Shown here piece after piece: positions 1,109 through 20,200 of a stretch of 64,000 nucleotides of DNA. This DNA comes from Candidatus Paceibacter sp. (lineage in GTDB: Bacteria; Patescibacteriota; Patescibacteriia; Magasanikbacterales; UBA922). Under the pieces are notes generated by a model. It was given only the letters and a program-made list of their open reading frames with translations, was not told where the DNA came from and made no database searches. How positions within the stretch are numbered: position 1 is the stretch's first letter; every line of letters begins with the position of its first letter. A program made the translations under genes and the position numbers. The stretch spans positions 1,054-65,053 of the forward strand of contig DYFM01000007.1 in the NCBI GenBank assembly GCA_020725175.1, written 5' to 3'.

Positions 1109-2281
1109 ATGGTTTACTTTGAATATAAATTGTTATATTCAAATATGAAATCCTCTGAATTTGTGGCTGGAAGCTATAAACAGCAGTACCAGTATAAGAG
1201 TTTTTTGCCCACACTCATCAACAAGCCATTTATTTGGAAAGATCAGCGCATTGATCTATTGTTGTCTGAGGCTATGCGGTATCTTGGTGAACTCAATGCC
1301 TACTCACAGTTGATACCTGATGTGGATTTTTTTATCAAAATGCATGTGGCAAAAGAAGCAAATGTTTCAAGTAAAATAGAAGGCACCAAGACGGAACTGG
1401 ATGAAGCATTTATGAAAGAAGAAGAAATTGATCCCGAACGACGTGATGATTGGGAAGAGGTTCAGCAATATGTCAAGGCAATCAATTATTCCGTTGCTGA
1501 GCTTGCACATCTCCCCTTATCAATACGTCTCATAAAAAACGCACATAATATTCTTCTGTCCGGTGTACGAGGATATAGTAAGCAACCTGGTGAAATTCGC
1601 ACTAGTCAAAATTGGATCGGCGGAGCGTCTTTGCAAGATGCGTATTATATTCCACCGCATTATAATGATCTTCCCGATCTTCTCACAGATTTGGAAAAAT
1701 TTTGGCATAATCAAGAACTGCAAATTCCAGCTCTCATAAAAATTGCCTTGGGTCATTATCAGTTTGAGACGATCCATCCATTTTTGGATGGGAATGGTCG
1801 TATTGGTCGTCTGATAATTACTTTGCATCTCGTATCTCTTGGTTTTCTCAAAAAACCATGCTTGTATTTGTCCGACTATTTTGAAAAAAACCGAAGAGAT
1901 TATTATGATGCGCTTGACAGACCACGACAAAATAATGATATTGAGCATTGGATCCGTTTCTTTTTGAACGGAGTTTTGGAGACCGCGAAACAAGGGACAG
2001 AGACCTTTGAAAAGATTATTGATCTGCGACAAGAGTACGAACAAGCGATTGATGGTGGTGTTGGTTTGCGACGACAAAAGAATGCAAAACGGTTGTTACT
2101 TGAATTGTTTTCAGATCCGGTAGTTACTGTAAAAGATATTGAGGAGAAACTATCGTGTAGCTTCCAGACTGCTAGTGTCCTTGCGGCTGATCTTGAACAG
2201 ATTGGATTGTTTTCAGAAAAAACCGGGTATTCTCGGAATCGTATTTTTGTATTGCATAAGTATCTTGATCTCTTTAAATAA
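1109..2281 (+). CDS. fic: Fic family protein (AMPylator-type Fido domain)
   Basis: Canonical Fic motif [12 protein letters not shown] (HxFx[DE]GNGRxxR). An upstream SSKIEG matches the inhibitory [ST]xxxE[GN] helix motif. Stop lies 7 nt before the hsdM start. Confidence 0.85.
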
Positions 2282-2287
2282 TAATAT

Positions 2288-4303
2288 ATGACAAACTTTA
2301 GCGAAAAAACCTCCCTGATTTGGTCAATTGCAGATTTGCTTCGTGGTGGATGGAAACAACATGAGTATCAAGATGTAATACTTCCATTGGTTGTACTCAA
2401 ACGGCTTGATGATGTACTCAAAGACACAAAACAAGATGTGTTATCTCGATACAATTCTCTGCAAGGACAAGTTGATGTGGATCCAATCCTCAAAAAAACA
2501 AGTAAGGTTGGTTTTTATAACATTTCTGAATACGATTTTGATAAGCTTCTCGACGCACCAAATGATGTAGCAAAAAATCTCCGTCACTACATGAATAGCT
2601 TTAGTAGAAATGTTGAAGAGATCATTGAAAAATTTGATTTTGAAAATCAGCTCTCACGTCTTGAAGGTGGGAATCTTCTTTATCTCATTATCAAAGAACT
2701 CAACAAAGTAAACTTGCATCCAAGTGCAGTAAGCAATCACGAGATGGGTTACATTTTTGAAGAGCTTATCCGAAAGTTTGCAGAAATGAGCAACGAGACT
2801 GCGGGAGAGCACTACACGCCCCGTGAAGTAATACAAATGATGGTGGAGGTATTGTTTACTCCTGATAAAAACAAGCTGAAGCAAGAACATATCATCAAAA
2901 CGGTATACGACCCATGTTGCGGTACGGGAGGTATGTTGACGGTTTCAAAAGATCATATCATCAACACTATCAATAAAGACGCGAGCATTTACCTCTACGG
3001 TCAAGAGCTCAACTCCACTACTTACGCCATATGCAACGCAGATATGCTGATCAAGGGTGAAGACCCCGACAAAATAAAAGGTGGAGAAAAAGACCACTCT
3101 GTGGCAAGTACACTTTCAAATGATCAATTTGAAGGGCAAGCATTCGATTACCTCCTCACGAATCCTCCGTTCGGAGTCGAATGGAAAAAAGACAAAGAAG
3201 CCGTAGAACGCGAAGCCGAGCGTGGCTTTGCCGGACGTTTTGGTGCCGGACTGCCGAGAATTTCCGATGGGCAACTCTTGTTTTTACAACATCTCATCTC
3301 AAAAATGAAAAATCCGATTGATGGAGGTAGTCGTCTTGGTATTGTCATGAATGGTTCTCCCCTCTTTACCGGCAATGCTGGTGGTGGTGAAAGTGAAATC
3401 CGCCGGTGGGTGCTTGAAAACGACATGCTCGAGGCTATTATCGCGCTCCCTGATCAACTCTTTTACAACACCGGCATTTATACTTATGTTTGGCTACTGT
3501 CAAACAACAAATCAAAAGAACGAGAAGGAAAGGTACAACTCATCGACGCACGCACATTCTACAAAAAAATGCGCAAATCACTCGGCAACAAGCGCCATGA
3601 AATTTCTGATGAAGACAAAAACAAGATTCTCAAACTCTACGAAGCGTTTGAAGAAAATGAACACTGCAAAATCTTTCCAACAGAGCACTTTGGTTACCGA
3701 CAAATTACTATCGACAGACCGCTTCGACTTAATTTTCAAGTTTCTCCTGAACGCATTGAAGCGCTCAAGCTTGAATCACAATTCACCAAACTCACAGAAA
3801 GTAAAAACGCCAAGAAAATTGAAGAAGGACAAGCGTTGCAACAATCTATCCTCGTTACACTCACTACGTTTGACAGTACGCTGTACAAAAATCGTGACGC
3901 GTTCATGAAAGTTTTTGATGAGAAGTTCAAAGCAATCAAGCTGTCCGTACCGCTCAAAAAAGCAATATTGAACGCGCTTTCTGAACAAGACGAGACGGCT
4001 GACATCTGCACCGACAGCAAAGGCAATCCAGAGGCAGATAGCAATTTGCGTGATACAGAAAATGTCCCACTTGGTGAAGACATCTATAAATACTTTGATC
4101 GTGAAGTGAAACCGTATGTGTCAGATGCATGGATTGATGAAAAGAAAAAAGATGCGAAAGATGGCAAGGTTGGTATTGTCGGGTATGAAATTCCACTGAC
4201 GCGATATTTTTATACATATGAACCACCACGAGCGCTCGAGGAGATTGAAAGTGAGATTGAAGAGGTGGAGAATGAGTTGCTTACCCTGTTAAAAAGTCTA
4301 TAA
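2288..4303 (+). CDS. hsdM: Type I restriction-modification system DNA methyltransferase subunit HsdM
   Basis: N6-adenine methyltransferase motif I (DPCCGTGGML) and motif IV (LLTNPPFG). 671 aa is typical of HsdM. Followed directly by hsdS. Confidence 0.9.
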   Translation: MTNFSEKTSLIWSIADLLRGGWKQHEYQDVILPLVVLKRLDDVLKDTKQDVLSRYNSLQGQVDVDPILKKTSKVGFYNISEYDFDKLLDAPNDVAKNLRHYMNSFSRNVEEIIEKFDFENQLSRLEGGNLLYLIIKELNKVNLHPSAVSNHEMGYIFEELIRKFAEMSNETAGEHYTPREVIQMMVEVLFTPDKNKLKQEHIIKTVYDPCCGTGGMLTVSKDHIINTINKDASIYLYGQELNSTTYAICNADMLIKGEDPDKIKGGEKDHSVASTLSNDQFEGQAFDYLLTNPPFGVEWKKDKEAVEREAERGFAGRFGAGLPRISDGQLLFLQHLISKMKNPIDGGSRLGIVMNGSPLFTGNAGGGESEIRRWVLENDMLEAIIALPDQLFYNTGIYTYVWLLSNNKSKEREGKVQLIDARTFYKKMRKSLGNKRHEISDEDKNKILKLYEAFEENEHCKIFPTEHFGYRQITIDRPLRLNFQVSPERIEALKLESQFTKLTESKNAKKIEEGQALQQSILVTLTTFDSTLYKNRDAFMKVFDEKFKAIKLSVPLKKAILNALSEQDETADICTDSKGNPEADSNLRDTENVPLGEDIYKYFDREVKPYVSDAWIDEKKKDAKDGKVGIVGYEIPLTRYFYTYEPPRALEEIESEIEEVENELLTLLKSL

Positions 4304-4307
4304 GCAT

Positions 4308-5570
4308 ATGAGTTTGAAATTAACCAAAACCTACACCCCCTACGACCGCTATACCGATAGTGGTGTTGCTTGGCTTGGGCAGGTGCCAGAGGGGTGGGAG
4401 GTTTTAAAGTTGAAATCAGTAGTTAACATTTTAAATGGTGCAACTCCAAAAAGTGACAGCCTCGAATATTGGGATGGGGATATCAATTGGGTTACTCCTG
4501 TAGATTTAAGTAAGCTGAAATCAAAATATATAACTGATACTCTTAGAAAGATCACAAAACAAGGATATTTATCCTGTGGAACAAAGATAATTCCGCAAGG
4601 TAATATTATAATGTCTTGCAGGGCCCCAATTGGTTTATTGGCAATAAACAGTGTAGACAGTACCACAAACCAAGGCTGTAAGGGGCTTGTGATAAGAAAA
4701 AAAACTAATACAGAATATTTGTACTATTTACTTTCTTCACTAATTCCAGTTATTCAGTTTCATGGCAATGGAAGTACTTTTTCAGAGATAAAAAATAATG
4801 ATCTAGGATCAATTGTTATTTCGCTTCCACCCCTCCCTACCCAACAACGCATCGCCACCTATCTCGATGAAAAGACTGAAAAAATTGACAGGATTATTGA
4901 TAGTAAAAAAAGGTTGGTGGAGTTATTGGAGGAGAAGAGAAAGAGTGTGATTAGTGAGGCGGTGGAAAGTGTTAGTGATGTGAAACGGGAGAAGTTGAAG
5001 TTTGTGTGTTCTATAAATATAGAAACGTTACCAGAAACTACTTATCCTGATTTATCTATTAATTACATTGATATAGGAAATGTAAATAATAAAGGTAAAA
5101 TTATAGATAAAGAGATTGTCAACTTTTCAGATGCTCCTTCTCGTGCGAGACGTATTGTACAAAATGATGATGTTATTATCGCTACGGTACGTACATACCT
5201 AAAAGCAATAGCATATTTTGAAAATCCAGAAGATAATACTATCGTATCTACAGGTTTTGCTGTACTTACTCCCACAAAGAAAGTGCTTGGAAAATATCTT
5301 TACTACAAAATACTATCAAAAAGATTTGTTGACTTGGTTGTAGCTCATTCTACTGGCGTTAGTTATCCAGCAATCAATCCTACGCAATTGGGAAATTTGT
5401 TTTTAGAATATCCGTCCATTGAAAGACAGAAACAAATTGTTGCTGAAACTGATAAAAAAATTCAGGAAATAGAAAAGGTAATCAAAAAAGTAAAACAATC
5501 AATCAAATTATTAACAGAATATAAATCTTCTCTGATCTCGCATGTGGTGACGGGGAGGGTGAGGGTGTAG
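4308..5570 (+). CDS. hsdS: Type I restriction-modification system specificity subunit HsdS
   Basis: 420 aa. Position between hsdM and hsdR. N-terminal W..LG..v..GW and central coiled-coil spacer (LDEKTEKIDRII..LLEEKRKS) are typical of S subunits with two target-recognition domains. Confidence 0.7.
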   Translation: MSLKLTKTYTPYDRYTDSGVAWLGQVPEGWEVLKLKSVVNILNGATPKSDSLEYWDGDINWVTPVDLSKLKSKYITDTLRKITKQGYLSCGTKIIPQGNIIMSCRAPIGLLAINSVDSTTNQGCKGLVIRKKTNTEYLYYLLSSLIPVIQFHGNGSTFSEIKNNDLGSIVISLPPLPTQQRIATYLDEKTEKIDRIIDSKKRLVELLEEKRKSVISEAVESVSDVKREKLKFVCSINIETLPETTYPDLSINYIDIGNVNNKGKIIDKEIVNFSDAPSRARRIVQNDDVIIATVRTYLKAIAYFENPEDNTIVSTGFAVLTPTKKVLGKYLYYKILSKRFVDLVVAHSTGVSYPAINPTQLGNLFLEYPSIERQKQIVAETDKKIQEIEKVIKKVKQSIKLLTEYKSSLISHVVTGRVRV

Positions 5571-5571
5571 T

Positions 5572-6654
5572 ATGAAATATATATTCATAGACAGCAATCA
5601 ATATAGACATCTTTTTTCTATAAATCAACAGTTCTCAGATGACCTTGTTGAACTTTTATGTAAATTGGCTAATAACGAGCAAATCCAAATTTTGATGCCA
5701 CAGCAAACAAAAGATGAAATTACAAGAAACCGCTGGTGTGATTGGCATTACTCAGAAATAAAAACTCTCGAATCTAAGATAAATGGCTACGAAAAAAAAC
5801 TGGAGGATCTGCAAAAAAATTATCAAGAGTTTGAGTCAGATTATAAAAAACTTAAAAAAGCTATCCAATCGAGAAAGTCAGCTTTTGAAAAGGAAAAGTC
5901 TAAATTAAAAACAAAATTTCTCAGTAAGAGAAGTAGGCAGAATCAAAATTTGAAAAAACTGTTTGAAGCATGCACACACATTCCTGAAAATGAATCACTT
6001 TATGAAAAGGCTCGTTTAAGATTTGATAAAGGTAACCCTCCGTATGACAGTAAAATTGGCGACTCACTCATATGGGAGTCTATTTTGGAACATATAAATA
6101 CTAACTCGACTAATAGACCGACCTTGCTTCTAATTGTGTCTAATGACAAAAAAGCATTTGGGGATGGCAGCATAGATCCGTGGCTAGAAGAAGAATTTAA
6201 GGACAAAACAAAAGGTAAAGACATTACGTTAGTACATAGGTTGTCTGATATACCTGAGTTTACAAAAGAAGAAAAAGATAAAATAGAACTTGAAGAGTTG
6301 GAGAGTATTAAAATGACTGCGGTTGAAGAATTTTGCAATAGTGAAAGTTTTGTATCTGCTGGTGATAATGCTAAACGTCTTTTAGATATACAAAATTTAC
6401 TAACGACCGATGATTTTAAGAAAATATTAGAAGCCAGTACAACAAATCATGAAATTTATCGTTCTTTTTTTACATCTACACCACTATACATGCTACTGTT
6501 TGATGAAACAGGATATCTAAGAAAAGAAATACAAGAAATTGAACAAAGTCTCTGGGAGAATTTCTGTGAAAAATTTGGTTTTCAAATTAGTGAGAGACCC
6601 ATAAAGTCTAAGATAGAAAATACGAACATAACAATTAATGATATACCATTTTAA
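5572..6654 (+). CDS. PIN-like domain protein with a coiled-coil insertion, embedded in the type I RM operon. Candidate latent RNase / abortive-infection effector.
   Basis: N-terminal YIFIDSN (PIN first acidic residue), later IGDSLIWESI and LLLIVSNDKKAF resembling the 3rd and 4th PIN acidic motifs, with a ~80-aa Lys/Glu-rich coiled coil between them. Starts 2 nt after the hsdS stop and ends 1 nt before the hsdR ATG. Confidence 0.5.
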   Translation: MKYIFIDSNQYRHLFSINQQFSDDLVELLCKLANNEQIQILMPQQTKDEITRNRWCDWHYSEIKTLESKINGYEKKLEDLQKNYQEFESDYKKLKKAIQSRKSAFEKEKSKLKTKFLSKRSRQNQNLKKLFEACTHIPENESLYEKARLRFDKGNPPYDSKIGDSLIWESILEHINTNSTNRPTLLLIVSNDKKAFGDGSIDPWLEEEFKDKTKGKDITLVHRLSDIPEFTKEEKDKIELEELESIKMTAVEEFCNSESFVSAGDNAKRLLDIQNLLTTDDFKKILEASTTNHEIYRSFFTSTPLYMLLFDETGYLRKEIQEIEQSLWENFCEKFGFQISERPIKSKIENTNITINDIPF

Positions 6655-6655
6655 T

Positions 6656-9634
6656 ATGCCAACAAACCTAAAAGAATCCGGCTTTGAAGAGTCAATCGAA
6701 CAATACCTCGCCGAACAAAACGGCTACCGTACCCGCAAACCTGCAGAGTACGACAAACAGCTCTGCATGGACACCGAGCTCATGCTTGAGTTTATTAAAT
6801 CTACCCAACCAAACGCTTGGGAAAAACTGGCAGAAAAACATGGCGATGCAGTAGATCAAAAAGTCCAGGCACGCATTGATGAAGAGATCAGCAGCCAAGG
6901 CGTGCTTGCGGTACTCCGAAACGGTGTCAAAGATCGTGGTATCAAACTCGACCTCGCCTACTTCCGCCCAGCTAGCAGCATGAACCCCGAAACACTCGAA
7001 CTGTACAATAGCAATATCCTCAGCGTCATGCGCCAAGTCAAATATAGTGAGGACAATGAAAACAGTATTGATATGGTGCTGTTCCTGAATGGCCTTCCTA
7101 TCTTTACGACTGAGCTCAAAAACCAGCTCACCGGACAAACAGTACAAAATGCGATTCGTCAGTATCGCAGCGATCGCGATGCAAAAGAAAAGCTCCTCAG
7201 CTTCAAACGATGCCTCGTGCATTTTGCGATTGATACCGACCTCGTCTACATGACGACGCGCCTTGCGGGCAATAGCACCTACTTCCTCCCCTTCAACCGC
7301 GGAGAACACGGATCCGCAGGAAACCCGACCAATCCGAATGGCTACAAGACCGCGTATATGTGGGAGCAGATCTGGAGCAAAGATACGGTGCTCGAGCTCA
7401 TTGGAAACTTCATCTGCCTGACCGTAGAAGAAAAAGTAAACGCAAAGGGTAAAAAGTACAAAGAAGAAAAACTCATCTTCCCTCGCTATCACCAGCTCGA
7501 TACCGTGCGTCGCATTGTTGCCGATGCAAAGGAAGTTGGGGCTGGGAAAAATTATCTTATTCAACACAGTGCCGGATCTGGAAAGTCTAATACTATTGCA
7601 TGGATTGCGCATCATTTATCAAGTTTGCATGATGCTGACGATAAAAAGGTGTTTGATAGTGTGATTGTTGTAACCGATCGGCGTGTCCTGGATAAAATGT
7701 TGCAAGACATTATTAAGCAATTTGAAAAAACAAGGGGTGTTGTTAAGGCCATTGATGAAAATTCGCAACAGCTAAAGATAGCCTTGGAGAGTGGAGAAAA
7801 AATTATTATTACCACCATTCACAAATTTGGAGTAATTGATGAGGTTGTTGGTAGTCTTCCGGGTAAAAACTTTGCCGTGATTATCGACGAGGCGCACTCT
7901 TCTCAAAGCGGTGAAGCATCAAAGAGTCTGCGAGATGTACTGATGATAGATAGCAAAGATGAAGAAAAACAACTTGAAGAAGCAATAAAAGAAGACAAAG
8001 AAACAGAAGAGTCGCCGGAAGAATTTATCTTGCGACAAATGAAGGCGCGCAAAGCGAAGACAGATAACATTAGCTTCTTTGCCTTTACTGCAACACCAAA
8101 ACAAAAAACACTCGAAGTATTTGGCACACAAAGTCCACTGGATGGAAAGTTCTATCCATTTTCGCTCTACTCCATGAAGCAGGCTATCGAAGAAAAGTTT
8201 ATTCTCGATGTGCTAAAAAATTATACACCATACAAGGTACACTTTGCCTTGCTCAAAAAAGTGGAAGACGATCCGGAGTTCAAGAAAAAGAAAGCGCAAC
8301 AGTTGTTACTCCAATATGTTGAACGCCACGAACATGCGATTGGGAAAAAAGTAGAAACCATGGTGGATCACTTTGATAAGTTCATTGCACAAAAATTAAA
8401 TGGAAAGGCAAAAGCCATGATTGTAACCAAATCTCGCCTGCATGCGGTGCGGTACAAACAAGCATTTGATAGTTATTTGAAAGAAAAAGGCCTTGAGTAC
8501 AAAGCAATGGTCGCTTTTTCTGGTACAGTAAAAGATGCAGGGGCAGAATACACTGAAGGGGGTATGAATGGTGTATCAGAAAAAAGTACGGCTGAAGAGT
8601 TTAAGAAAGATGCATATAAATTCATGATTGTAGCAGAGAAGTTTCAGACTGGTTTTGACCAGCCACTCCTCTCTGTGATGTATGTAGATAAAAAGTTGAG
8701 TGGTGTGAATGCAGTACAGACACTCAGCCGACTGAATAGAAGTGCATCAGGCAAAGAAGAAGTCTATGTACTTGACTTTGTAAATGATACGGATGATATT
8801 ATCAAAGCGTTTCAACCATACTATACGACGACGGTTTTATCGGAAGAAACTGATCCAAATGTTCTGCATAACTTGGAACGAGATGTACTGAAATTTAAGT
8901 TGTTTGGTTCTGATGAAGTGGATCACTTTGTTGAGGCATTTTTTAAAAATGCCAAGCCGGATAGCTTAAATAGTATGATAGATGGGTATGTCAATCGGTT
9001 TTTACAAACAACCGAAGAAGAGCAGAATGATTTTCGTGAGGTCTTGACTGATTATATTCGTAAGTATGCCTTTATTTCACAGATTATCGATTTTGAAGAT
9101 ACCGATCTTGAGAAGTTGTATGTATTTGGAAAGTATTTGAAAAGGAAGTTACCAATCAGAAAAGAGTCGCTACCAACAGAAGTTCTTGAAAGTGTAGATA
9201 TGGATTCTTATAAGTTGGTTAAAAAAGAGACCCAGGCACTGCTTCTTGAGGATGAAGATGGAACGATTGAACCGATCTCAAAAGGGTCTGCGGGAAATTT
9301 TGAAGATGAGTATGAGAATCTGTCGAGTATTATCAAAGATGTGAATGATAAATTTGGCACGGATTTTTCACAGGAAGATCGGGTTATATTGAATAGCTTG
9401 AGTCTGAGGTTGCTTGAAGATTCTTCTGTTGCTGGTGCAATTCAAAATAATACGCGAAGTGCAGCAAAAATTAAGTTTGATGATGTTTTCAATGATGAGC
9501 TGGTAAATATGGTCAATAATCATTTTGACTTATATAAGAAGTTGGATAAAAATAAAGATGCTAAAGAGTATGTGCGAAGTCGGATTTTTAACTTTTTGTT
9601 GCGGAAGGTGGGGAAGAAAGAAAAAGTTAAGTAG
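6656..9634 (+). CDS. hsdR: Type I restriction enzyme R subunit HsdR
   Basis: Walker A HSAGSGKSNTIAW, DEAH-box VIIDEAHSSQSG, SF2 helicase C-terminal motifs, ~990 aa. Start taken at the ATG 1 nt after the upstream stop; an in-frame alternative start exists at 6638. Confidence 0.9.
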   Translation: MPTNLKESGFEESIEQYLAEQNGYRTRKPAEYDKQLCMDTELMLEFIKSTQPNAWEKLAEKHGDAVDQKVQARIDEEISSQGVLAVLRNGVKDRGIKLDLAYFRPASSMNPETLELYNSNILSVMRQVKYSEDNENSIDMVLFLNGLPIFTTELKNQLTGQTVQNAIRQYRSDRDAKEKLLSFKRCLVHFAIDTDLVYMTTRLAGNSTYFLPFNRGEHGSAGNPTNPNGYKTAYMWEQIWSKDTVLELIGNFICLTVEEKVNAKGKKYKEEKLIFPRYHQLDTVRRIVADAKEVGAGKNYLIQHSAGSGKSNTIAWIAHHLSSLHDADDKKVFDSVIVVTDRRVLDKMLQDIIKQFEKTRGVVKAIDENSQQLKIALESGEKIIITTIHKFGVIDEVVGSLPGKNFAVIIDEAHSSQSGEASKSLRDVLMIDSKDEEKQLEEAIKEDKETEESPEEFILRQMKARKAKTDNISFFAFTATPKQKTLEVFGTQSPLDGKFYPFSLYSMKQAIEEKFILDVLKNYTPYKVHFALLKKVEDDPEFKKKKAQQLLLQYVERHEHAIGKKVETMVDHFDKFIAQKLNGKAKAMIVTKSRLHAVRYKQAFDSYLKEKGLEYKAMVAFSGTVKDAGAEYTEGGMNGVSEKSTAEEFKKDAYKFMIVAEKFQTGFDQPLLSVMYVDKKLSGVNAVQTLSRLNRSASGKEEVYVLDFVNDTDDIIKAFQPYYTTTVLSEETDPNVLHNLERDVLKFKLFGSDEVDHFVEAFFKNAKPDSLNSMIDGYVNRFLQTTEEEQNDFREVLTDYIRKYAFISQIIDFEDTDLEKLYVFGKYLKRKLPIRKESLPTEVLESVDMDSYKLVKKETQALLLEDEDGTIEPISKGSAGNFEDEYENLSSIIKDVNDKFGTDFSQEDRVILNSLSLRLLEDSSVAGAIQNNTRSAAKIKFDDVFNDELVNMVNNHFDLYKKLDKNKDAKEYVRSRIFNFLLRKVGKKEKVK

Positions 9635-9648
9635 GTAGGTAGACTTTT

Positions 9649-10386
9649 ATGAACACCTTTAAACAATCAGCAATTGAAATATTGAAAAAGACAGGAACGC
9701 CTTTGCATTATACCGAAATCACCCGGTTGGCTTTGGAATCAGGCATACTGGAAACCGAAGGCGCGACGCCGGAAGCAACGATGAGCGCCCAAATTGTAGT
9801 GGATATCAAGAACAAAGGCGAGGGCTCGAGTTTTGTGAGGACCGCGCCTGGAACTTTTGCGCTCAATCCAAACAAGAAAGAAATCAAAGAAACACCAAAA
9901 ATTATTGAAGCAGAAAAAGAGGAAGAAGAAAAAATTGTTATTGCCGGAGGATTTACCGGAAAAGCCGGTGAGCATCTTGTTTGCTCGGAACTTCTTTTTC
10001 GTGGTTTCAACGCCAGTATCATGAGTGTAGATGTGGGGATGGACATTGTGGCGGTCAAAGAAAATCAATTGTTTGGTATACAGGTCAAAACTTCAAATCT
10101 CAATCGTTTTGATACGTATGTTTTTGATATTCGCAAAGTATCTTTTGAACGCCACAGTAACGGAAATATTTATTACATTTTTGTTTTGCACGGCGAGAAG
10201 AAAAACAATTTTTTGATTTTGCCATTTCACGAAGTTGAAAAGAAGGTTCACGAAAAAGCAATTTTGGAGGTTGGATATGGCAAACGCTATCGGGTAAATA
10301 TAAAATTTAGAGATGAAAAGGTATATCTTGGAAATATGGAACACGAAATGGGCTATTTTCTGAATAATTGGGGTTTAATAAAATAA
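9649..10386 (+). CDS. HARE-HTH domain fused to a PD-(D/E)xK restriction-endonuclease-like domain (Mrr-like architecture)
   Basis: N-terminus AIEILKKTGTPLHYTEITRLALESG...FVRTAPGTFAL fits the HARE-HTH pattern. C-terminus GEHLVCSELL...VGMDIVAV...IQVKT fits the E...D...(E/Q)xK nuclease core. Confidence 0.6.
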   Translation: MNTFKQSAIEILKKTGTPLHYTEITRLALESGILETEGATPEATMSAQIVVDIKNKGEGSSFVRTAPGTFALNPNKKEIKETPKIIEAEKEEEEKIVIAGGFTGKAGEHLVCSELLFRGFNASIMSVDVGMDIVAVKENQLFGIQVKTSNLNRFDTYVFDIRKVSFERHSNGNIYYIFVLHGEKKNNFLILPFHEVEKKVHEKAILEVGYGKRYRVNIKFRDEKVYLGNMEHEMGYFLNNWGLIK

Positions 10387-10974: not shown

Positions 10975-10980
10975 TTGCAT

Positions 10981-11718
10981 ATGAATTCGCCTGTTTATGA
11001 TTTAAACAAAATAAAGTTTAGTACCGACCCGGCAACGTATGAGCGAGCGGTGGGATTAATCCAAAATGGAAAGGTGCGAGATGTAAAAGAGAGCTTGAAT
11101 GGGTTTCAAGCAACTGTTATTGGTACTGAACCGTATCGTGTGGTGGTTGGATATCGACAGTATGAGGATGGGGATTGTACGTGTTATCTCGGGGAGCGAG
11201 GTGAGGTGTGTAAACATATGGTAGCGTTGGCTCTGTACGTGGTGCTTCAGGGTGCGCCCGTGTCCGCTGAAGACATGCGGCAATATACAAAAGCAGTTTG
11301 CAGTAAAAAGATTGGTGAACTATCTAACAAAGAATTACTTGATGTAAAACAACAGATTACCGTGGCGCTCAAATATATCAAACCTTATGATGGTCCGTCA
11401 CGTATTTGGTTCCGTTATCAATCATCGTTGTCAGAAGGGTGTGCACGTATAACAGCCCTCGCGTCAGAATTGCCGGTAAGTAAGCAGACAGCAAAAATAT
11501 TGGTTGATCTTCTTATCCGAATGGAACGAAAACTTATGAATGGTGTTGATGATTCCGACGGGACTGTGGGAAGTTGTATGGAAGAGTTGGTTTTGGTGTT
11601 GAATGATTTTGCTATACTGTCTTCGGAATGCATAGAATGTTTTGGGGTTTTTTGCGGAATGCAAACGTCTTTTGGTTGGGAAGAGTCGTTGGTCCGCCTT
11701 TATACTACTTCTAACTGA
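10981..11718 (+). CDS. SWIM zinc-finger domain protein
   Basis: CTCYLGERGEVCKHMVALALYV matches the SWIM CxCx(n)CxH signature. Confidence 0.5.
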   Translation: MNSPVYDLNKIKFSTDPATYERAVGLIQNGKVRDVKESLNGFQATVIGTEPYRVVVGYRQYEDGDCTCYLGERGEVCKHMVALALYVVLQGAPVSAEDMRQYTKAVCSKKIGELSNKELLDVKQQITVALKYIKPYDGPSRIWFRYQSSLSEGCARITALASELPVSKQTAKILVDLLIRMERKLMNGVDDSDGTVGSCMEELVLVLNDFAILSSECIECFGVFCGMQTSFGWEESLVRLYTTSN

Positions 11719-11742: not shown

Positions 11743-12480
11743 ATGAAGCAAAAGAAAACAAATGTAGCATCAAAAACAAGTAAAAGACAATCTAAAAAAA
11801 GTATTGATTTTTCAGCAGTAGACATGCCACAACTTATCGATTGGGCGCATGAGGGAACCAAAGATTCACTTGATAAACTGACTTCGTTTATCATAGAGAC
11901 AAACAATACGGAGCTACGAGAATTTGCCAATATCGCTTATGGGGAAGCGGAATATTTTTACTATAGCCCAAAAAATAAACAAGAAGAACGTGATCTTGAA
12001 TTGGCATTTTTAATTCATGAACGAGAAGAACATCTGATTAAATTGTTAGCAGAAGCTGATCGATTGAGTGTATTGATAAAAAAAGATAAGTTGGAACAAG
12101 AGATTTATGACAGTCTCATGAAAAAGCAAAACACCAAAAAGAAGGTAGAATGGCAATATCGATATATGGGTGATATACATGGTTGTCAGGCTCGTTTGCA
12201 GGAGGTGGAAGAGGACATAGAGTATGAGAGTGCTTGGCTCAAAGAAGCACTAGGTATGATGAAAACAAAGCGATACGAGAATCTACCTGAAAGTGTTTTT
12301 GAACATATGCGCCTCAGTGAAAGTGGCTCGTTTTGGATAGATGATATGGGTGGTTTTGCGGAGAATTGTTGTGACATCTCTTGTCCTCATTGCGGATCGC
12401 ATAATACGGTTGAGATAGATGATCAGGTTCATCCAGTTGGAAATTTTCATAAGTCAGAGATCGAAGATATACCGTTTTAA
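11743..12480 (+). CDS. Hypothetical protein with a C-terminal zinc ribbon (CPHCGSH)
   Basis: 245-aa ORF. Lys-rich N-terminus, CxxC...CPHC near the C-terminus. Confidence 0.4.
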   Translation: MKQKKTNVASKTSKRQSKKSIDFSAVDMPQLIDWAHEGTKDSLDKLTSFIIETNNTELREFANIAYGEAEYFYYSPKNKQEERDLELAFLIHEREEHLIKLLAEADRLSVLIKKDKLEQEIYDSLMKKQNTKKKVEWQYRYMGDIHGCQARLQEVEEDIEYESAWLKEALGMMKTKRYENLPESVFEHMRLSESGSFWIDDMGGFAENCCDISCPHCGSHNTVEIDDQVHPVGNFHKSEIEDIPF

Positions 12481-13270: not shown

Positions 13271-13755
13271 GTTCTAACAGTAGCACCGGAATTGATCGGT
13301 AAGGTGTTGGTTCGTCGTTTGCCGGATGGAACGTTGTCTCAATCTTTTATTACTGAAGTAGAAGCATACGATGGGGAACAAGATCTTGCGTGTCATGCGT
13401 CAAAAGGCAAAACACCTCGAACGGCAGTTATGTATGAACCGGGTGGAGTGTGGTATGTGTATTTGGTGTATGGTATGTATCATATGCTCAATATTGTGAC
13501 ACGAAGTGCCGGGTATCCGGCAGCAGTGCTGATTCGAGGCACTTCCGGTATTTCTGGTCCCGGAAGATTGACGAAACACCTTCAAATAGATCGAACGTTA
13601 ACTGGGATGAAAGCGAAGAAAACAGTGGACTGTGGATTGAGGATCATGGTATTGCAGTTCCATCGAATGAGATTATTCAGACGCTGAGAATTGGAGTTGA
13701 TTATGCTGGTCTGTGGGCGAAGAAAGAGTATCGGTTTGTGTGGTATAATAGTTGA
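13271..13755 (+). pseudogene. mpg: 3-methyladenine DNA glycosylase (Mpg/AAG family), N-terminally short and interrupted by a -1 frameshift near 13600
   Basis: Frame A: ELIGKVLVRR...[47 protein letters not shown]...[11 protein letters not shown]. Frame B continues with [16 protein letters not shown]...[21 protein letters not shown]. Together these match AAG-family blocks. No ATG start; a stop lies at 13268. Confidence 0.55.
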
Positions 13756-13780: not shown

Positions 13781-16543
13781 ATGCCAAATGATGGGTTAGG
13801 TAAAAGAAGAAGAAGATTGGTTCGGGATATTGAAGAAGAAAGGCGCTCTTCCGATGAACCAACAACTAAGGGTGAATCTTCTCCAAAAGTACCACCAGCA
13901 GAGAATAGTGGTACTAAAGGTGCTCGTATAGAAAAAAGGCAAAGAACTGCCACTAAAGAGCTACCAGAAAAAAAAGTTGTGCCTTCTGTAAAAGAACAGC
14001 TTGAAGAAGGAGTGCTACGTCTTTCTGAAGTCTCTGGAGACGAGACACTTTATTCTCACCAGGAAGCTATCATGGTTGATGTCGTAGATTATCTTCGTGA
14101 AATAATTAAGAGAAAAAAGAAACCATCTTTGGACACAGAATCATTCCATTACGCACGAATTGTAGCCGCACCAAGAACAGGTAAAACGCGTATTGCCGCT
14201 GAAATAGTTCGTCGTACTGGAGTAAGAATTGTATACTTAGTTCCTGCTCTGAATTTAGTAGAACAAGCAATAAAAGAGTTTCGAGACCATTTAGGGACAC
14301 AGATAAACATTGCAGCTTATACAGGTAGAGATAAAAAAGATGTTTCGGGGGCTCATATTATCATTGGCACGTATCAAAAAGCACAAAAACAAGGAGAAAT
14401 AGGTAAAGATCTTCCCGAAGAATTTCACCAAGCAGGTATTGTTTTTCTTGATGAGGGGCATACATCGACTACCGAACAGCGAACAGAAATGCTACGAAAA
14501 GCGTTTTCTCCCGAAGCTGTTAAAATAGCTTTAACCGGCACACCCGACTATAGTGAAGAGCGACTACTTGAAAGGTATTATCCTGTTTTAATACATGAAC
14601 TTAGTATTCCAGAAGCGTATGAGTTAAATATGTACGCTCCTTTTCAATACAGTATTATCGAAATGGATCGAGATGCCTCGCATGTATCATCTGAGGGAGA
14701 GGATTTTAATTCAGAAGAACTAGGTGAAATATATACTCAAATTCCTGTACTAGAATTGGCATACCGTTTACGTAAGATAACCCAGACAATGGCTAATACT
14801 CCAGCTCTTATAACATGCGCCAGTGTAAAACAGGCTAATTTACTACAGCAGTACATGGAAGAAAAAGGTATTTTGTCTGAGCTCATTACTGGAACGATAG
14901 ATAAAAATCATAGAAAAAAAATTCTTGATAAATTTGATAGAGGTGAAGTTGATACTCTTATTACTGTTAAAGTTTTAACACAAGGATGGGATTCTCCGCG
15001 ATGTAAGTACCTTATTGATCTAGCACCAACTTTTTCACCTGTTTTGGCCCAACAAAAATATACACGACCACTCACTAAAACTGATAATAAACAGATAGCC
15101 ACTATTGTTACGGTTGTCCCAAAAAACCTTCCGGTTGAACCGATTTTTCCAGGAGAGGTTTTTTCATTAGAGGAAGATATTGTTTTGCCACCTGGAAGAA
15201 TCATGTCACCGGATAAAGAGATTCAGAAACCCCAAAACGAAGAATATCAATTACCTTCAATTGATAATCTTACGGTTCGATTAGTGGCTGATCTACAAGA
15301 TTTTCACTTTATGGCAAGAAAAGAATTGGTAGCTTCACCCCACACTTTACGATCAATTTTGGAGACCGGATTAAGGCAATTTTCCAGAAATGCTAAAGAA
15401 AAAAAACTCATGCTTATTGCACTATTAGCGAGTCGTTTCAATTTTAATAGAACGCACTTTTCTCACGAGTCATTTGTTGGTAGCGGTCGAGTTTTGTTGA
15501 GGAGATTGGGATTTAAGAGTACTGATGAAGGGTATACGCAGTTTTTGTATGCTTTTTTTCCTGAGGAAGCAGCTACAATTTTTCTTTTTAAAGATCAACT
15601 ACAAAACTATCGTTTTCTTTCTACTAATCGACTGATGCGATTATTAAGACAAGAAGAGAGTGTTAATTTGCGTTCTACTACAAGTGATTTGATGACTATT
15701 AATCGGGGATTACTGAGTGGTGATCAAAAAGTTAGAAATAATGCAGCAGCGGCAATGGAAATCCTTTCTCAGGGTGGTAACGAAACTCATTTGTATTCAA
15801 ATCGTGCAGAAAGTTTACTTGATCCAGAACATCCTGCTGAGGATTTGTTTGTTCAACATACGCTTCTTCCAACGGTAGTTAATGATTTGGGTGAAAGGGA
15901 TATGAAATATCTAAGAGAAAGGGTACTGTTAGGTAAAACATTAGATGAAACCGGAAAAGTACTGGATGTTTCACGTGAGAGAGTGAGACAGAGAGTTGCA
16001 ACTCTTCTGTCTAGAATGAAACATAGGTTAGAGTTGATGATGAAAGCATCTTCTGAGATAAAAAGTGATCAGGTTGAAAGTTTCCAACTGAAAAAAACAT
16101 GGTCCGAAAATTTTTTGTTTATAGGAAATTTTATGCTTGAAGCAGGTAGAGAATTGCATCATATTTTTAATGAACAGCTGCCTGATCATGAAGTTTTATT
16201 TTTCCATAATGAGTTTAGTAAGACTGTTAAAAATGTAATAATGTTTATGAATGAGATTGGTAGTTTATCACTTAAAATTGCCGAACTATATGAGAAAGAA
16301 AATATTTCTGATTATTATCAAGAATTAAGGGATAAACTATTTACTTTACAAAATTTGATGAGTGAAATGCAGAAACAAGAAGAGATATTACAAATAAAAG
16401 TGCAAAGTGTTATTCAGCAAAAAAACTATCCCTGGGTATTGGCTCTGCACGTAGAGATGCAGAAGTTTTTTTCTCAACAAAAAAAAATCAAAAATTTATT
16501 TCTGCAAGTTTGGTCTCGTTTATATGAAGCGCGTAACCTATAG
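13781..16543 (+). CDS. SF2 (DExH/ResIII-like) helicase fused to a C-terminal sigma-70 region-4-like HTH domain
   Basis: Walker A AAPRTGKTRIA, motif II FLDEGH, motif III LTGTPD, helicase-C block LITVKVLTQGWDSP. Near residue ~730, LGKTLDETGKVLDVSRERVRQRVATLLSRMK closely matches sigma-70 region 4.2 (TLEEIG..fgVTRERIRQIE..AL.KLR). Confidence 0.6.
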   Translation: MPNDGLGKRRRRLVRDIEEERRSSDEPTTKGESSPKVPPAENSGTKGARIEKRQRTATKELPEKKVVPSVKEQLEEGVLRLSEVSGDETLYSHQEAIMVDVVDYLREIIKRKKKPSLDTESFHYARIVAAPRTGKTRIAAEIVRRTGVRIVYLVPALNLVEQAIKEFRDHLGTQINIAAYTGRDKKDVSGAHIIIGTYQKAQKQGEIGKDLPEEFHQAGIVFLDEGHTSTTEQRTEMLRKAFSPEAVKIALTGTPDYSEERLLERYYPVLIHELSIPEAYELNMYAPFQYSIIEMDRDASHVSSEGEDFNSEELGEIYTQIPVLELAYRLRKITQTMANTPALITCASVKQANLLQQYMEEKGILSELITGTIDKNHRKKILDKFDRGEVDTLITVKVLTQGWDSPRCKYLIDLAPTFSPVLAQQKYTRPLTKTDNKQIATIVTVVPKNLPVEPIFPGEVFSLEEDIVLPPGRIMSPDKEIQKPQNEEYQLPSIDNLTVRLVADLQDFHFMARKELVASPHTLRSILETGLRQFSRNAKEKKLMLIALLASRFNFNRTHFSHESFVGSGRVLLRRLGFKSTDEGYTQFLYAFFPEEAATIFLFKDQLQNYRFLSTNRLMRLLRQEESVNLRSTTSDLMTINRGLLSGDQKVRNNAAAAMEILSQGGNETHLYSNRAESLLDPEHPAEDLFVQHTLLPTVVNDLGERDMKYLRERVLLGKTLDETGKVLDVSRERVRQRVATLLSRMKHRLELMMKASSEIKSDQVESFQLKKTWSENFLFIGNFMLEAGRELHHIFNEQLPDHEVLFFHNEFSKTVKNVIMFMNEIGSLSLKIAELYEKENISDYYQELRDKLFTLQNLMSEMQKQEEILQIKVQSVIQQKNYPWVLALHVEMQKFFSQQKKIKNLFLQVWSRLYEARNL

Positions 16544-17274: not shown

Positions 17275-20200
17275 ATGGGAGGGTATGTAAAAATCTTAAT
17301 AACTATTTTGTTTTTTTTGTTTCATCCTAGTTTTGTTTTTAGTGTAGAGTTAAAGCCATTTGATTATCCTTTATATCAGAAATTGGTACAAACTGTTCGC
17401 TTAGGAGGTAGTTGGAGCAAGTATTACGGTCACTTAGGTGAAGATTATGGTGCTGATCCAGGTGATACAGTATATGCTGTAGCAGATGGTGTTGTAGAGT
17501 TGGTGAAAAATTGGCCTTTGTGTGATAAATTTGAAAAAGTTAATGGTGAGTTAAAGAAAGTTGATAGTGCAAGAGGTTGGGGAGGTGTTGTCATCATAAA
17601 ACATGATTTAAAAGGGGAGGGCAATTTTTTTACGAAGGATCTATATCTTCCTAATTCTCCAGTAGAAGAAAATCCGGAGGTTGTTTTTAGTCAATATGGA
17701 CACTTAACAAACTTAACTGTTACGAATGGGCAGGTTGTTAAAAAAGGAGAAAAAATAGGAGAAATTGGAAAAATGTGTAAGTGGATACCACATCTACATA
17801 TTGAAATTAAAGATAAAAATGCTTTAGAGAACGAAATTTTAGACGGAGTTGGTAGTGGTTACTCTGGTAAACATGATCATGCCCCACATAGATACAAAAT
17901 TTTAGCTTTTATAGAAAAAAATTCTTACTTGAGTCTTTCGGATGATCCCCAACAAAAACCTGCTTCAAACAACCTGGCAAGTCCCATCATTCTTTCTCCA
18001 TTTACAAATCCACAATTCCTCTCCAACTTCTGGTCATCAAATAAGGAGACTGCCGTCTTTGCTGAGCAGTCTCCTTTTTTATTGGAAAATGTCATTGAGC
18101 AGATGAAGAAACCGAAACCAGATAATGATGTTCCGACAAAGGATGCTGGTGAGCCGAAGAATAATCTCGAAAAACCAAAAGAAGTCGTCGAGAACGGCAC
18201 ATATACCGCTACGCTGGTTGGTTCGCCAAAAGAAGTTCAGGTACTAAAAGGGACGAAGACGGTAGAATTGAAGCTCGAAGCAAAAAATAGCGGAACTGTA
18301 GCTTGGAAAAAGAAGGATATTTCGGTGAATGTCGTCGGAGGAAAAGCAAAAAATAGCAAGTACGTCACTGAAAGTTGGTTTACCAAATTGCGACCGGCTC
18401 TCCTTGATCAGGAACAGGTTTCTCCTGGTAGTATAGGAACATTTACGTTTGTCATTGCAATTCCTGAAGATGAAACTTCCATTACCTTACCGTTCATGAT
18501 TGTACGACAAGACGTACAAAACAATTTTTATCAAGTGGGAAATCAGCAATACATATTTCAAATTAAACAAGTGGACAGTTTACCCCTCGTTCAAAATGAA
18601 GAACCAGCTGGAACCGGTGGTCCAACAGATATCGACGATCCAAACTTTTTTGCCGACATATACAACGAAACAAAACAGGTAGTCAAAAAAACAGTTAAGA
18701 AAACTACGGACACAGTGAAAGACATCACCTATGATACTATTGATGTTATTAAAAACATACCACAATACTTTTCCGGTGGTGGGGGATCTTCTATAAATGA
18801 GGGTCAATACGAAGATGATAATTCTGTTGATACAGGAAATGAAAACAATAATGACATTGATATCGATGCTAACATTGAAAGTCCAACCAGCACTCCTAAA
18901 GAAGATGAACAGGTAGAAGAAACCGAAGACGAGCAAGTAGAAGAGCAAATTTCCATTCTTGAACCGGATCACACGCCGTACATTACCAACGCAAATCCAA
19001 TCATAATAGCAGGTGAACGAACGAGTGGGGTGGCAAGTGTTTCGTTGGTGGGAATGGACGCTGAGGTGGAATATCCTACAAGTACCGGTTGGCTTTTGCG
19101 GTTCAATCTATCGGAAGGTGAGCAGATGATTCAGGTGCAGGGGAAAAATGCCGCTGGAGCAGTGGTTGCGACTACAAGCGTTGGGTATGTATTTGACGTT
19201 ACGCCACCAGATACTCCTGGTGTAACAATTACCCAAACCGGAACAGATCCGACGTATGTTTCGGTGTCGTGGATTTCTTCGGATACGTTGAGTGGAATAA
19301 TGTCGTATGACGTAGAGCGAAAGTTGATGGGGAACGAAGCAAATGAGTGGGAACGTGTGCTTACAGATACGGCGGAAACAGAATATAATTTTGAAGCGTA
19401 TCTTGGTGATATATATGCGATTCGAGTTCGCGCACGGGATCGGGCGTACAATATTTCGGAGTGGAGTGGTGGAGAAGAAGGGGAGACGTATTATGTTGAT
19501 TATACAAAAGAACTAGTGATCAATGAAGTAAACTGGATGGGGACGATGAATAAGGCAACCGGTGGATGTCGAGATCATGAGTGGATTGAACTCTACAACC
19601 CAACAGAAAATCCGATCGACTTGACCGGTTGGACAGTGACGATTGAAAACAAATCCGGACAGATGAATACGCTTACACCGACCGGTTCTGTTTCTCCGCG
19701 GTCATATTACCTTTTGGCTCGAAAAGCATCAAGCCGTTCAGCTGTGATAGACCTTCCGATTGATCATGAATACCAGAATATTGTTTTGCCAAATGATGGC
19801 GCACGGTTAACGTTACGGAATAGCGTGGGTGAAATAGTCGACGAAGTGAATTTTGTTGACAAATGGCCGGCAGGTACACAAACTGGTGGACCAAGTAAAA
19901 ATTTCTATCGTTCCATGGAACGGGTGAGTTCGTATTTGCCGGGAAGTTTGACTGACAATTGGCGGACGAATCAACATATTCCGGTTCTTGGGAGAACAAA
20001 TAATTGTGGTGAATTATTTGGGTCACCGCGCCAACCAAACAACGGACACTGGTTGTTGCGTGCACCGGACTTTTATTATGCTGATGTGTTTGATGCTTCC
20101 GGTACGTTAACACTTTCAAACCGTTTCAGTCCATATGTATTGGACATTGGAACAATAATTCCGGCTGGAAAAACATTGGTGCTCGAGCCGGGGGTAGTGG

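Follow-up and report, generated by a model that had tools for sequence, protein, structure and literature searches.

The window, that is, the whole 64-kb stretch of DNA that was analysed, contains a type I restriction-modification (RM) operon on the + strand, with a gene of the PIN_12 (DUF4935) family, encoding a predicted nuclease, placed between two of its core genes. At the head of the operon lies a SoFic-type Fic gene (1109..2281; Pfam Fic_N and Fic; PADLOC SoFic, 8.7e-117), followed by hsdM (2288..4303; Pfam HsdM_N and N6_Mtase) and hsdS (4308..5570; Pfam Methylase_S, two domains). The PIN_12 gene occupies positions 5572..6654 (360 codons plus the stop codon TAA at 6652-6654) and is followed by hsdR (6656..9634; Pfam HSDR_N, SWI2_SNF2, ResIII, and T1R_D3-like) and, 14 nt past hsdR, by a gene with HARE-HTH (3.8e-18) and PD-(D/E)XK-like (PDDEXK_5, 9.4e-4, below the cutoff) matches at 9649..10386. 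Thus, the location originally predicted for the gene, between the hsdS stop at 5570 and the hsdR ATG at 6656, was confirmed, and so were its neighbours by Pfam.

The stop codon of hsdS (TAG, 5568-5570) and the ATG of the PIN_12 gene (5572-5574) are separated by one base. Direct reading of this junction (5552..5574, + strand) identified an SD-like GGGGAGGG/GAGGG, with GAGGG at 5561-5565, within the 3' end of hsdS and ahead of the PIN_12 gene. The junction with hsdR (6652..6658, + strand) consists of TAA, one base, and ATG, and no SD-like sequence was found there upstream of hsdR. Therefore, translation of hsdR is probably coupled to that of the preceding gene. An in-frame ATG at 6638, which would make hsdR overlap the PIN_12 gene, is an alternative to the start at 6656, and both are used in public gene calls. 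We propose that the PIN_12 gene shares a transcript with the type I restriction genes, to which its translation is probably coupled as well. The scan for promoters and terminators yielded matches at chance level that were uninformative on the operon structure, and the Rfam and tRNA scans of the 64-kb window were empty.

The gene is unlikely to be a chance open reading frame, given its 1,083 nt at a GC content of 31.5% and its 50 full-length homologues with E values of 1e-55 to 1e-89; a minus-strand open reading frame inside it (6000-6338) was taken to be spurious. Its GC content is the lowest in the operon (31.5% vs. about 41%). With gaps of 1 nt to both hsdS and hsdR, no small, antitoxin-like (VapB-type) open reading frame was found beside it on the + strand.

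The encoded protein matched the Pfam family PF16289 (DUF4935, now PIN_12) with 52.8 bits (cutoff 32; E 8e-14), over residues 4-196 of the protein and the complete profile (1-172 of 172), and the same precomputed hit was present in 49 of the 50 homologues. The predicted structure contains the alpha/beta/alpha fold of PIN domains. The N-terminal part of the core (residues 1-56, positions 5572..5739, + strand), delimited from the alignments A1 and A3 and the secondary structure of the model, comprises a strand (2-6) directly followed by the invariant D7, the residues Q10, Y11, and H13, a second strand (38-43), and a helix (44-55) with the invariant E49; with a mean entropy of 0.94 bits it is the most conserved part of the protein. 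The C-terminal part of the core (residues 121-222, positions 5932..6237, + strand), delimited from the alignments and the model, contains a strand (135-137), the invariant R150, a GNPP loop (154-157), the motif G163-D164-x-L-I-W-E-S, another strand (185-189), and the invariant D192. The four acids D7, E49, D164, and D192 do not vary in any of the 51 sequences of A1 or of the 19 sequences of A3, which reach down to 29% identity, and appear to occupy the canonical strand-end and helix positions of an active site. The original prediction of a PIN fold with an intact acidic site, together with the guess that the family is DUF4935, was thus borne out by the Pfam match, the alignments, and the predicted structure.

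The two parts of the core are separated by a helical insert (positions 5740..5931, + strand), as had been expected, although its length is about 61-64 residues rather than about 80. According to the DSSP assignment of the model it consists of two helices (57-84 and 88-117), which presumably form an antiparallel coiled-coil hairpin. The insert is net basic (+7) and, with an entropy of 2.25 bits, the most variable structured part of the protein; coiled-coil noise hits covered it in Pfam, PADLOC, and NCBIfam. The matches to LmuB, DruC, JetC, SMC, and tape-measure proteins (PADLOC, NCBIfam, PHROGs) were dismissed as low-complexity helix or coiled-coil noise, and a Lamassu or SMC-like component could be ruled out because an ATPase domain is absent. 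A search of the PDB with the protein sequence gave no match, and a Foldseek comparison of the full model with the PDB gave nothing significant.

The PIN core extends to about residue 222, so that the remainder of the protein is a C-terminal domain of about 120 amino acids plus a tail, and not a domain of about 180 amino acids as initially supposed. The domain (residues 223-340, positions 6238..6591, + strand) is all-helical, cannot be assigned to a fold, and carries the conserved motifs SFxxAG (259-264) and N292-x-x-I-Y-x-S-F-F-T. It is followed by a disordered linker (residues 341-356) and the tip DIPF-COOH (residues 357-360), together at positions 6592..6651 on the + strand; the pLDDT of residues 341-360 is 43-59. 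The protein thus ends with NDIPF, and its variable acidic tail resembles the C-terminal tip of SSB, the SSB-Ct motif of which is given as DDDIPF (PMC5872125). Both have a disordered linker, acidic residues, and a terminal [ILVF]-P-F; however, the protein is not an SSB, as an OB fold is absent. Among the close homologues, 19 of the 51 end with DIPF and most of the others with xIPF, DDF, or DLDF. A terminal F is present in 49 of the 75 wider homologues and in 45 of 117 diverse representatives, and the endings DIPF, DLPF, DVPF, DFPF, DDF, and DFEF recur in the family. An ssb gene for comparison of the tails was found neither in the window nor in the 48 sequences of the loci. A search of the literature retrieved no report of a defence nuclease that mimics the SSB tail.

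PIN_12/DUF4935 (PF16289) has been placed in the VapC group of the PIN-like superfamily (Matelska et al. 2017, PMC5499597), with a 'long helical insert after S2' as a family trait. The same study describes the genes as 'usually monocistrons' or 'usually monocistronic', with function unknown, and lists Actinobacteria, Bacteroidetes, Firmicutes, and Proteobacteria as hosts. The protein encoded in the window shares with this family the length of about 350 amino acids, the N-terminal PIN domain, the insert after strand 2, the 4-5 conserved acids, and an uncharacterised C-terminal region, whereas its clade differs in being found mostly in CPR/Patescibacteria assemblies and in its incorporation into RM operons. 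Only 39 of the 1,846 clusters of the PIN_12 family reach E <= 1e-30 to the protein. On the basis of fold and active site, it is most probably a metal-dependent nuclease of the VapC structural group, and more specifically an RNase; cleavage of tRNA or rRNA would be a reasonable default expectation for a PIN domain of this group. However, VapC toxins have about 130 amino acids compared with 360 here, and they lack the core hairpin of about 61 amino acids, the extra helical domain, and the acidic tail. A VapBC toxin was ruled out, as no antitoxin gene accompanies the PIN_12 gene.

The close relatives of the protein stem mostly from assemblies of Patescibacteria (CPR). In this close clade, the gene was found within type I operons at 16 distinct loci (the window and 15 more), as well as at one locus after a Type ISP enzyme and at one beside a type II cluster. 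Altogether, 18 of the 20 informative loci of the clade are linked to RM genes, and the other two have short flanks without RM genes. An intermediate clade added three type I loci and two loci with the order PIN-Mod-Res (type III-like). The slot varies (S-PIN-R, M-PIN-S, or R-PIN-MS), and the partners range from several type I families and an HsdM-HsdS fusion to Type ISP and type III-like enzymes; insertion on the same strand between core genes thus recurs across many independent RM systems. These results support the view that the gene is not a standard component of type I systems, and the preferential occurrence of its homologues at type I RM loci, which the original prediction presupposed, proved to be a strong and repeated association. 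No relative from the close clade was detected in the viral contigs of IMG/VR.

More distant relatives are stand-alone genes in defence-like islands. In Bacteroidota they are single genes, one adjoining AbiC and HEPN and one in an array with AbiGi and a Zeta toxin, and a copy on a Xanthomonas plasmid lies next to ABC-3C and NERD genes. In addition, gp7 of the Escherichia phage (Punavirus) JL22 (ON018986.2) aligned with a probability of 99.4% in hhalign (E 2.5e-21, 265 aligned columns). In JL22 and in about 20 IncY plasmids, the homologue is flanked by mat and lxc, exactly where P1 has res-mod (EcoPI). Among 5,426 complete E. coli genomes, 30 carry this homologue, in all cases on a plasmid of 92-100 kb. 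JL22 gp7 has the same architecture as the protein in the window and the same conserved residues (D, E, GNPP, GD..W.E, and D), but it is only 24% identical, has a shorter insert, lacks the xPF tail, and is encoded by a single gene without an RM neighbour. With a homologue in place of EcoPI in P1-like phage-plasmids of E. coli, the family can be tested directly in a model host.

Several known systems are comparable with this arrangement. PrrC (EcoprrI, type IC) is the documented case of an RM-silenced nuclease that is freed by anti-restriction (PMC12707154), and the likeness includes a nuclease predicted to be latent, its placement in the hsdS-hsdR slot of a type I operon, and the absence of an antitoxin gene. 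In contrast, PrrC is composed of ABC-ATPase-like and anticodon-nuclease domains, a fold unrelated to PIN_12, and searches of Pfam, NCBIfam, and PADLOC for PrrC, RloC, or an ABC-ATPase domain in the PIN_12 protein gave no match apart from coiled-coil noise. Contrary to the initial assumption, PrrC is also no longer the only studied precedent. The TgvAB genes of V. cholerae VPI-2 are embedded in a type I system and act independently of it (PMC11411939), and a 'guilt-by-embedding' survey (Payne et al., bioRxiv 10.1101/2024.01.29.577857) lists HEC/PDC candidates in RM, BREX, DISARM, and Hma loci of RefSeq genomes. Like the PIN_12 gene, these are foreign genes inserted in the same orientation between the core genes of RM systems, and those tested are independent of the host system; their protein families differ from PIN_12. 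The text and the accessible supplements of Payne et al. do not mention PF16289 or DUF4935, and our literature search retrieved no report of PIN_12/DUF4935 in RM operons. PADLOC-DB v2.0.0 has no model that matches the PIN domain, which is not catalogued there as HEC/PDC. The PIN_12 family is absent from PADLOC v2 and from PHROGs, indicating that nobody has validated it. PcrIIC1, a PIN-fold pro-CRISPR accessory of type II-C Cas9, binds Cas9 and boosts its DNA binding and cleavage; it is a small protein consisting of a PIN domain only. PIN-like folds include DNA nucleases too, and PcrIIC1, the closest accessory precedent, partners a DNA-targeting enzyme.

How tightly the PIN_12 gene is bound to its RM system can be assessed from a locus (L042) that has the same order as the window (Fic-M-S-...-PIN-R). 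Between the two loci, Fic, HsdM, and HsdR are 58%, 60%, and 57% identical, respectively, but the PIN_12 proteins only 41%; the gene has thus been exchanged independently of the Fic-hsdM-hsdR backbone. Therefore, we read it as a self-contained effector and as a new candidate 'embedded' defence gene. We consider the chances slightly better than even that this PIN_12 nuclease is an accessory anti-phage effector co-transcribed with type I restriction. Its relatives occur repeatedly within restriction operons of ultra-small bacteria, which makes an extra anti-phage weapon probable; this defence role is judged from genomic association. In the mechanism that we envisage, the protein's own non-catalytic parts (the hairpin, the C-terminal domain, and the acidic tail), rather than an antitoxin or one particular RM complex, would keep the nuclease latent, a self-inhibition that we purely infer. 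Something that accompanies infection would act as the trigger, and the activated nuclease would degrade RNA (tRNA, rRNA, or mRNA) and halt the growth of the infected cell. It would thereby form a second line behind restriction, and embedding would ensure that the gene is expressed and inherited together with the RM genes, and not that the protein is under their obligatory physical control.

Gating by the restriction complex in the manner of PrrC is possible, but we consider it less likely. In a true analogue of PrrC, HsdM2S or HsdR would bind and silence the nuclease, phage anti-restriction would free it, and the cleavage of tRNA or rRNA would act as a suicide backup. The prrC-like slot between hsdS and hsdR with its 1-nt junctions, the almost exclusive linkage of the clade to RM systems, and the lack of an antitoxin gene fit this logic, which is documented for PrrC. 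The same is true for the assignment to the VapC group, which is typical of tRNA and rRNA cleavers (the same list has VapC entries for tRNA-fMet and 23S rRNA), and for the correlation between the pairwise identities of PIN and HsdM (Spearman 0.62). Indeed, the near-exclusive RM embedding of the close clade is as strong as that of PrrC and could reflect a functional dependence that is invisible to genomics. However, the partners are divergent, including type III-like enzymes, and the slot shifts, so that a conserved docking surface is unlikely. The divergence of PIN relative to the RM backbone, the relatives of the same architecture without an adjacent RM system, including those in the P1 res-mod slot, and the lack of any sequence relation to PrrC also argue against such an analogue, which we regard as unlikely although credible. 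On the genomic evidence, dependence on one cognate RM complex, as is characteristic of PrrC, was not found.

Another explanation, distinctly unlikely in our estimation, is that the proteins of the CPR clade guard ATP-dependent restriction enzymes in general, whether of type I, Type ISP, or type III. In this case, the acidic xPF tail would be the latch, either by plugging the protein's own nucleic-acid groove or by tethering it to an SSB-partner protein, and a phage attack on restriction or on the SSB network would lead to release, RNA cleavage, and abortive infection. If true, the trigger of this immune effector would follow a new logic, and the relative in P1-like phage-plasmids is tractable in E. 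coli.

The protein might instead assist restriction on DNA, by processing or degrading the DNA ends or single strands that restriction enzymes leave behind as they translocate, or by boosting these enzymes as PcrIIC1 does with Cas9, and its SSB-like tail would lead it to SSB-partner proteins at single-stranded DNA. Reduced genomes, in which degradation of the RecBCD type may be missing, would profit from such a helper. However, the stand-alone copies in Bacteroidota and the P1-like copies have no restriction enzyme to assist, the family is grouped with the VapC RNases (PMC5499597), and one close relative adjoins a type II cluster, so that we hold this explanation to be very unlikely.

Finally, the gene might have no part in defence and be an RNase cassette, either selfish and toxin-like or of a housekeeping kind, that gathers in an insertion-tolerant, hsdS-proximal part of RM operons. 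This would agree with the other inserts in CPR type I operons (RhuM, Bro-N, DUF4145, HTH-SocA, GIY-YIG, YgjP, and unknown ORFs), with the deviant GC content of the segment comprising the PIN_12 gene and hsdS, and with the monocistronic genes without known function in the literature (PMC5499597), but it is highly improbable in view of defence contexts of three independent kinds, spread over three phyla, of catalytic residues that are strictly conserved over 24-46% identity, and of the fact that a lone PIN toxin without an antitoxin cannot be an addiction module.

If the embedded PIN_12 nuclease, which we favour as a self-contained effector, indeed protects against phages, it would be a new, fold-distinct entry in the very short list of effectors that are genetically wired into restriction. 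The conserved tail, which gives a nuclease the likeness of an SSB tip, could show how effectors of this kind are restrained or recruited. Phage protection would also be the first function for a Pfam family of about 1,800 sequence clusters labelled 'function unknown', and it would imply that CPR bacteria, with their reduced genomes, fit a layered defence into one operon, consisting of SoFic, the type I RM system, PIN_12, and the HARE-HTH nuclease.

The PIN gene was confirmed at the position given in the original prediction, as an open reading frame at 5572-6654 (+) comprising 360 codons followed by TAA. The hsdS stop codon occupies 5568-5570 (+), the PIN ATG starts at 5572 (+), and its TAA ends at 6654, with the hsdR ATG at 6656 (+). 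An SD-like GAGGG motif is located within hsdS, six bases 5' of the PIN ATG, and an alternative in-frame ATG of hsdR at 6638 would create an overlapping start; both hsdR starts are used among public gene calls. Pfam assigned the surrounding genes, all on the + strand, as a SoFic-type Fic gene (1109-2281; PADLOC SoFic, 8.7e-117), hsdM (2288-4303), hsdS (4308-5570), hsdR (6656-9634) and a gene at 9649-10386, in which a HARE-HTH domain and a PD-(D/E)XK-like nuclease region are fused. The latter gene starts 14 nt past the hsdR stop and probably belongs to the operon as another accessory gene. At other loci, the position after hsdR is occupied by different nucleases, PDDEXK_1 (L041), DUF4357 and GIY-YIG (L042) or YgjP (L001, L004 and L006). 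An identical PIN protein is encoded in GCA_020724605.1 (contig DYGQ01000004.1), and its closest homologues were in assemblies of Patescibacteria/CPR (Parcubacteria, Chisholmbacteria, Staskawiczbacteria, Minisyncoccia and Paceibacterota).

Farther downstream, the window encodes a 920-aa protein (13781-16543, +) in which an SF2 helicase (ResIII and Helicase_C) is joined near residue 700 to a Sigma70 region 4 HTH, an unusual fusion. A 131-aa ORF with a TTG start (13292-13687, +) matches methylpurine-DNA glycosylase on profile positions 14-100 of 181 and may be truncated or frameshifted. A 1454-aa protein (17275-21639, +) combines an M23 peptidase with a lamin-tail domain.

The PIN protein matched Pfam PIN_12 (PF16289, formerly DUF4935) with 52.8 bits (cutoff 32). 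Because the match, residues 4-196, spans the entire profile, the helical insert is part of the family model. The structures listed for the protein were 1y82 (P. furiosus hypothetical protein with a PIN fold, 9.6), 1w8i (putative VapC ribonuclease AF_1683, 9.5), 5x3t_B (VapC26, 8.9) and 8wmm_G (PcrIIC1, 8.9). Four acidic residues do not vary among 51 close homologues, nor in a wider alignment reaching down to 29% identity. According to the alignment and the predicted structure, D7 follows strand 1, E49 lies in the helix after strand 2, D164 is at the N-terminus of the helix after strand 3, and D192 follows strand 4. Y11, R150, a GNPP loop and GDxLIWES are further invariants. In the predicted structure the PIN core is split by two long helices (57-84 and 88-117), which we read from the secondary-structure string as a putative antiparallel hairpin. 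These helices are net basic and form the most variable structured region (2.25 bits vs 0.94 in the N-terminal core).

A 2017 study placed PIN_12 among the PIN-like families, describing its function as unknown and its genes as "usually monocistrons" (PMC5499597). The embedding of defence genes in type I loci is established, as a dedicated survey describes (bioRxiv 10.1101/2024.01.29.577857); PF16289 and DUF4935 are mentioned neither in its text nor in the supplements covered here. The PADLOC v2.0.0 models gave no match to the PIN protein, and our literature search found no report of PIN_12/DUF4935 in RM operons. About 30 metagenomic loci, of which many were short, supplied the contexts of relatives; RM types were assigned by Pfam domains and tblastn, and distinct loci were counted after merging PIN proteins at least 95% identical. 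In the close clade (about 40-47% identity), 16 distinct loci have the gene inside type I operons. It immediately follows a Type ISP enzyme in one locus (L016) and adjoins a type II methylase/BsaWI cluster in another (L040); two loci with short flanks show no RM genes (L019 and L032), and one contig was of insufficient length to judge (L029). The slot varies, the arrangements being M-S-PIN-R, M-PIN-S, M-RhuM-(Bro-N)-DUF4145-PIN-S-R, R-PIN-(M-S fusion) and (M?)-GIY-YIG-PIN-S, and so do the C-terminal families of the partner HsdR (EcoR124_C, EcoEI_R_C and T1RH-like_C). In the intermediate clade (32-38%), three loci are of type I (L007, L009 and L043/44), in two (L027 and L028) PIN precedes a type III-like pair of a MerR-fused N6_N4 methylase and a ResIII helicase, and in two (L008 and L045) no RM gene neighbours PIN. 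The RM-linked clade makes up a small part of the family, with 39 of the 1846 PIN_12 clusters scoring E <= 1e-30.

Further ORFs of 150-340 aa, none of them assigned to a Pfam family, are embedded in the CPR type I operons beside PIN or in the hsdM-hsdS interval (L001:7049-7540, L002:11046-11888, L003:7567-8773, L006:11060-12004, L026:4717-5742, L041:6105-6761 and L042:7187-7993), and there are also RhuM, Bro-N, DUF4145, HTH-SocA/Panacea and GIY-YIG inserts. These operons look like insertion hubs.

Pairwise identities of PIN and HsdM are correlated (Spearman 0.62, 105 pairs), as would be expected from co-inheritance alone. Most informative is the comparison of the window with L042, both ordered Fic-M-S-...-PIN-R. 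Between the two loci, Fic is at 58% identity, HsdM at 60% and HsdR at 57%, HsdS is at 24%, and PIN, at 41%, is no nearer than the window PIN is to any other clade member. GC content is lowest in hsdS and PIN among the genes of each of the two operons; the window PIN is at 31.5% (GC3 25.8%), hsdM and hsdR at about 41%. The conserved backbone of the operon therefore encloses a variable cassette region in its middle. The Fic-hsdM junction, with Fic upstream at a spacing of 6 nt in the window, also occurs in L042, which makes Fic look like a constant component of this backbone.

In a mainly Bacteroidota clade (27-30% identity), the PIN_12 gene stands alone. One copy adjoins AbiC and HEPN genes, another lies within a unidirectional array with AbiGi, Zeta-toxin and DUF3800 genes, and a third adjoins dinB. 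The 15-kb locus L047 (Flavobacterium sp. contig DASVUR010000004.1) is a run of about 15 small genes that share one strand with a single exception, are spaced roughly 150-350 nt apart and mostly lack a Pfam match; the PIN_12 homologue, DUF3800, CAT, Zeta-toxin and AbiGi are among them, and the locus resembles a cassette array or a hypervariable island. A Xanthomonas plasmid copy adjoins ABC-3C, DUF2326 and NERD genes. At L010:8811-10402, an AAA_21 (AbiEii-like ABC) ATPase gene lies immediately upstream of an incomplete PIN_12-like gene where the contig ends, a pairing reminiscent of the survey candidate HEC-03.

By tblastn of plasmids and phages we identified a tractable E. coli homologue, 24% identical and annotated as DUF4935 or PIN domain protein. 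Its carriers are Punavirus JL22 and about 20 E. coli IncY plasmids 92-100 kb in size. Profile comparison gave 99.4% probability (E 2.5e-21) over 265 columns, spanning the PIN core with its insert and the greater part of the C-domain. The gene is present in 30 of 5426 complete E. coli genomes, every copy on such plasmids. In JL22 and plasmid pRHB28-C11_2 the order is cre, c8, ref, mat, PIN_12, lxc, ulx, darB; in phage P1 (AF234172) it is the same, but res-mod (EcoPI, type III RM) replaces PIN_12. Thus, a PIN_12 protein of the same architecture is the single-gene occupant of a slot otherwise housing a restriction system. With at least two states of the mat-lxc interval in P1 (L050) versus JL22 (L051) and L048, res-mod or a lone PIN_12, the comparison suggests a swappable defence slot of P1-like phage-plasmids.

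A guard of restriction resembling PrrC, the anticodon nuclease named as precedent in the original prediction, would be consistent with the slot and with the nearly exclusive linkage of the close clade to RM. However, partners and slots are diverse, PIN has been exchanged independently of the RM backbone, and stand-alone relatives exist, so that such a guard appears unlikely.

The PIN protein ends in DIPF, and an acidic residue, any residue, P or D and a terminal F recur in most of the 51 close homologues and, e.g. as EDLPF, in relatives at 30% identity. A C-terminal F is present in 49 of 75 wider homologues, most of them from a mainly Bacteroidota clade, and in 45 of 117 diverse cluster representatives. 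The C-terminal tip of SSB, DDDIPF (PMC5872125), has this pattern; the PIN protein is not itself an SSB. Only 2 of the 306 window ORFs of at least 50 aa have such a tail. The other, unrelated to PIN and about 1.3 kb downstream of the RM operon, encodes a 245-aa protein (11743-12480, +) with a C-terminal CPxCG-like zinc-ribbon motif, the end EDIPF and no Pfam family. Its six homologues (one source-named, Candidatus Uhrbacteria) have EEPPF (2) or DDV-type acidic tails, and a SWIM zinc-finger gene (10975-11718, +) lies just upstream. RecQ of E. coli is a classical binder of the SSB tail, which makes the RecQ-family helicase of the window (22165-23430, +; DEAD, Helicase_C, RecQ_Zn_bind) a candidate partner of the DIPF tails. 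The SSB-like tail, the PcrIIC1 precedent and the restriction to translocating enzymes would all suit a helper acting on DNA ends or ssDNA, but stand-alone copies do not fit such a role, which we consider improbable. A cassette unrelated to defence is the least credible reading, being hard to reconcile with three independent kinds of defence context.

On balance, we lean towards PIN_12 as an autonomous nuclease effector that is co-expressed with restriction; beyond the fold, the active-site conservation and the context, every step of this and the other readings is inferred. The latency of the nuclease would be imposed by its own hairpin, C-domain or tail, and RNA would be the most likely target, as for VapC-group enzymes. 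Such an effector would provide a second line of defence.
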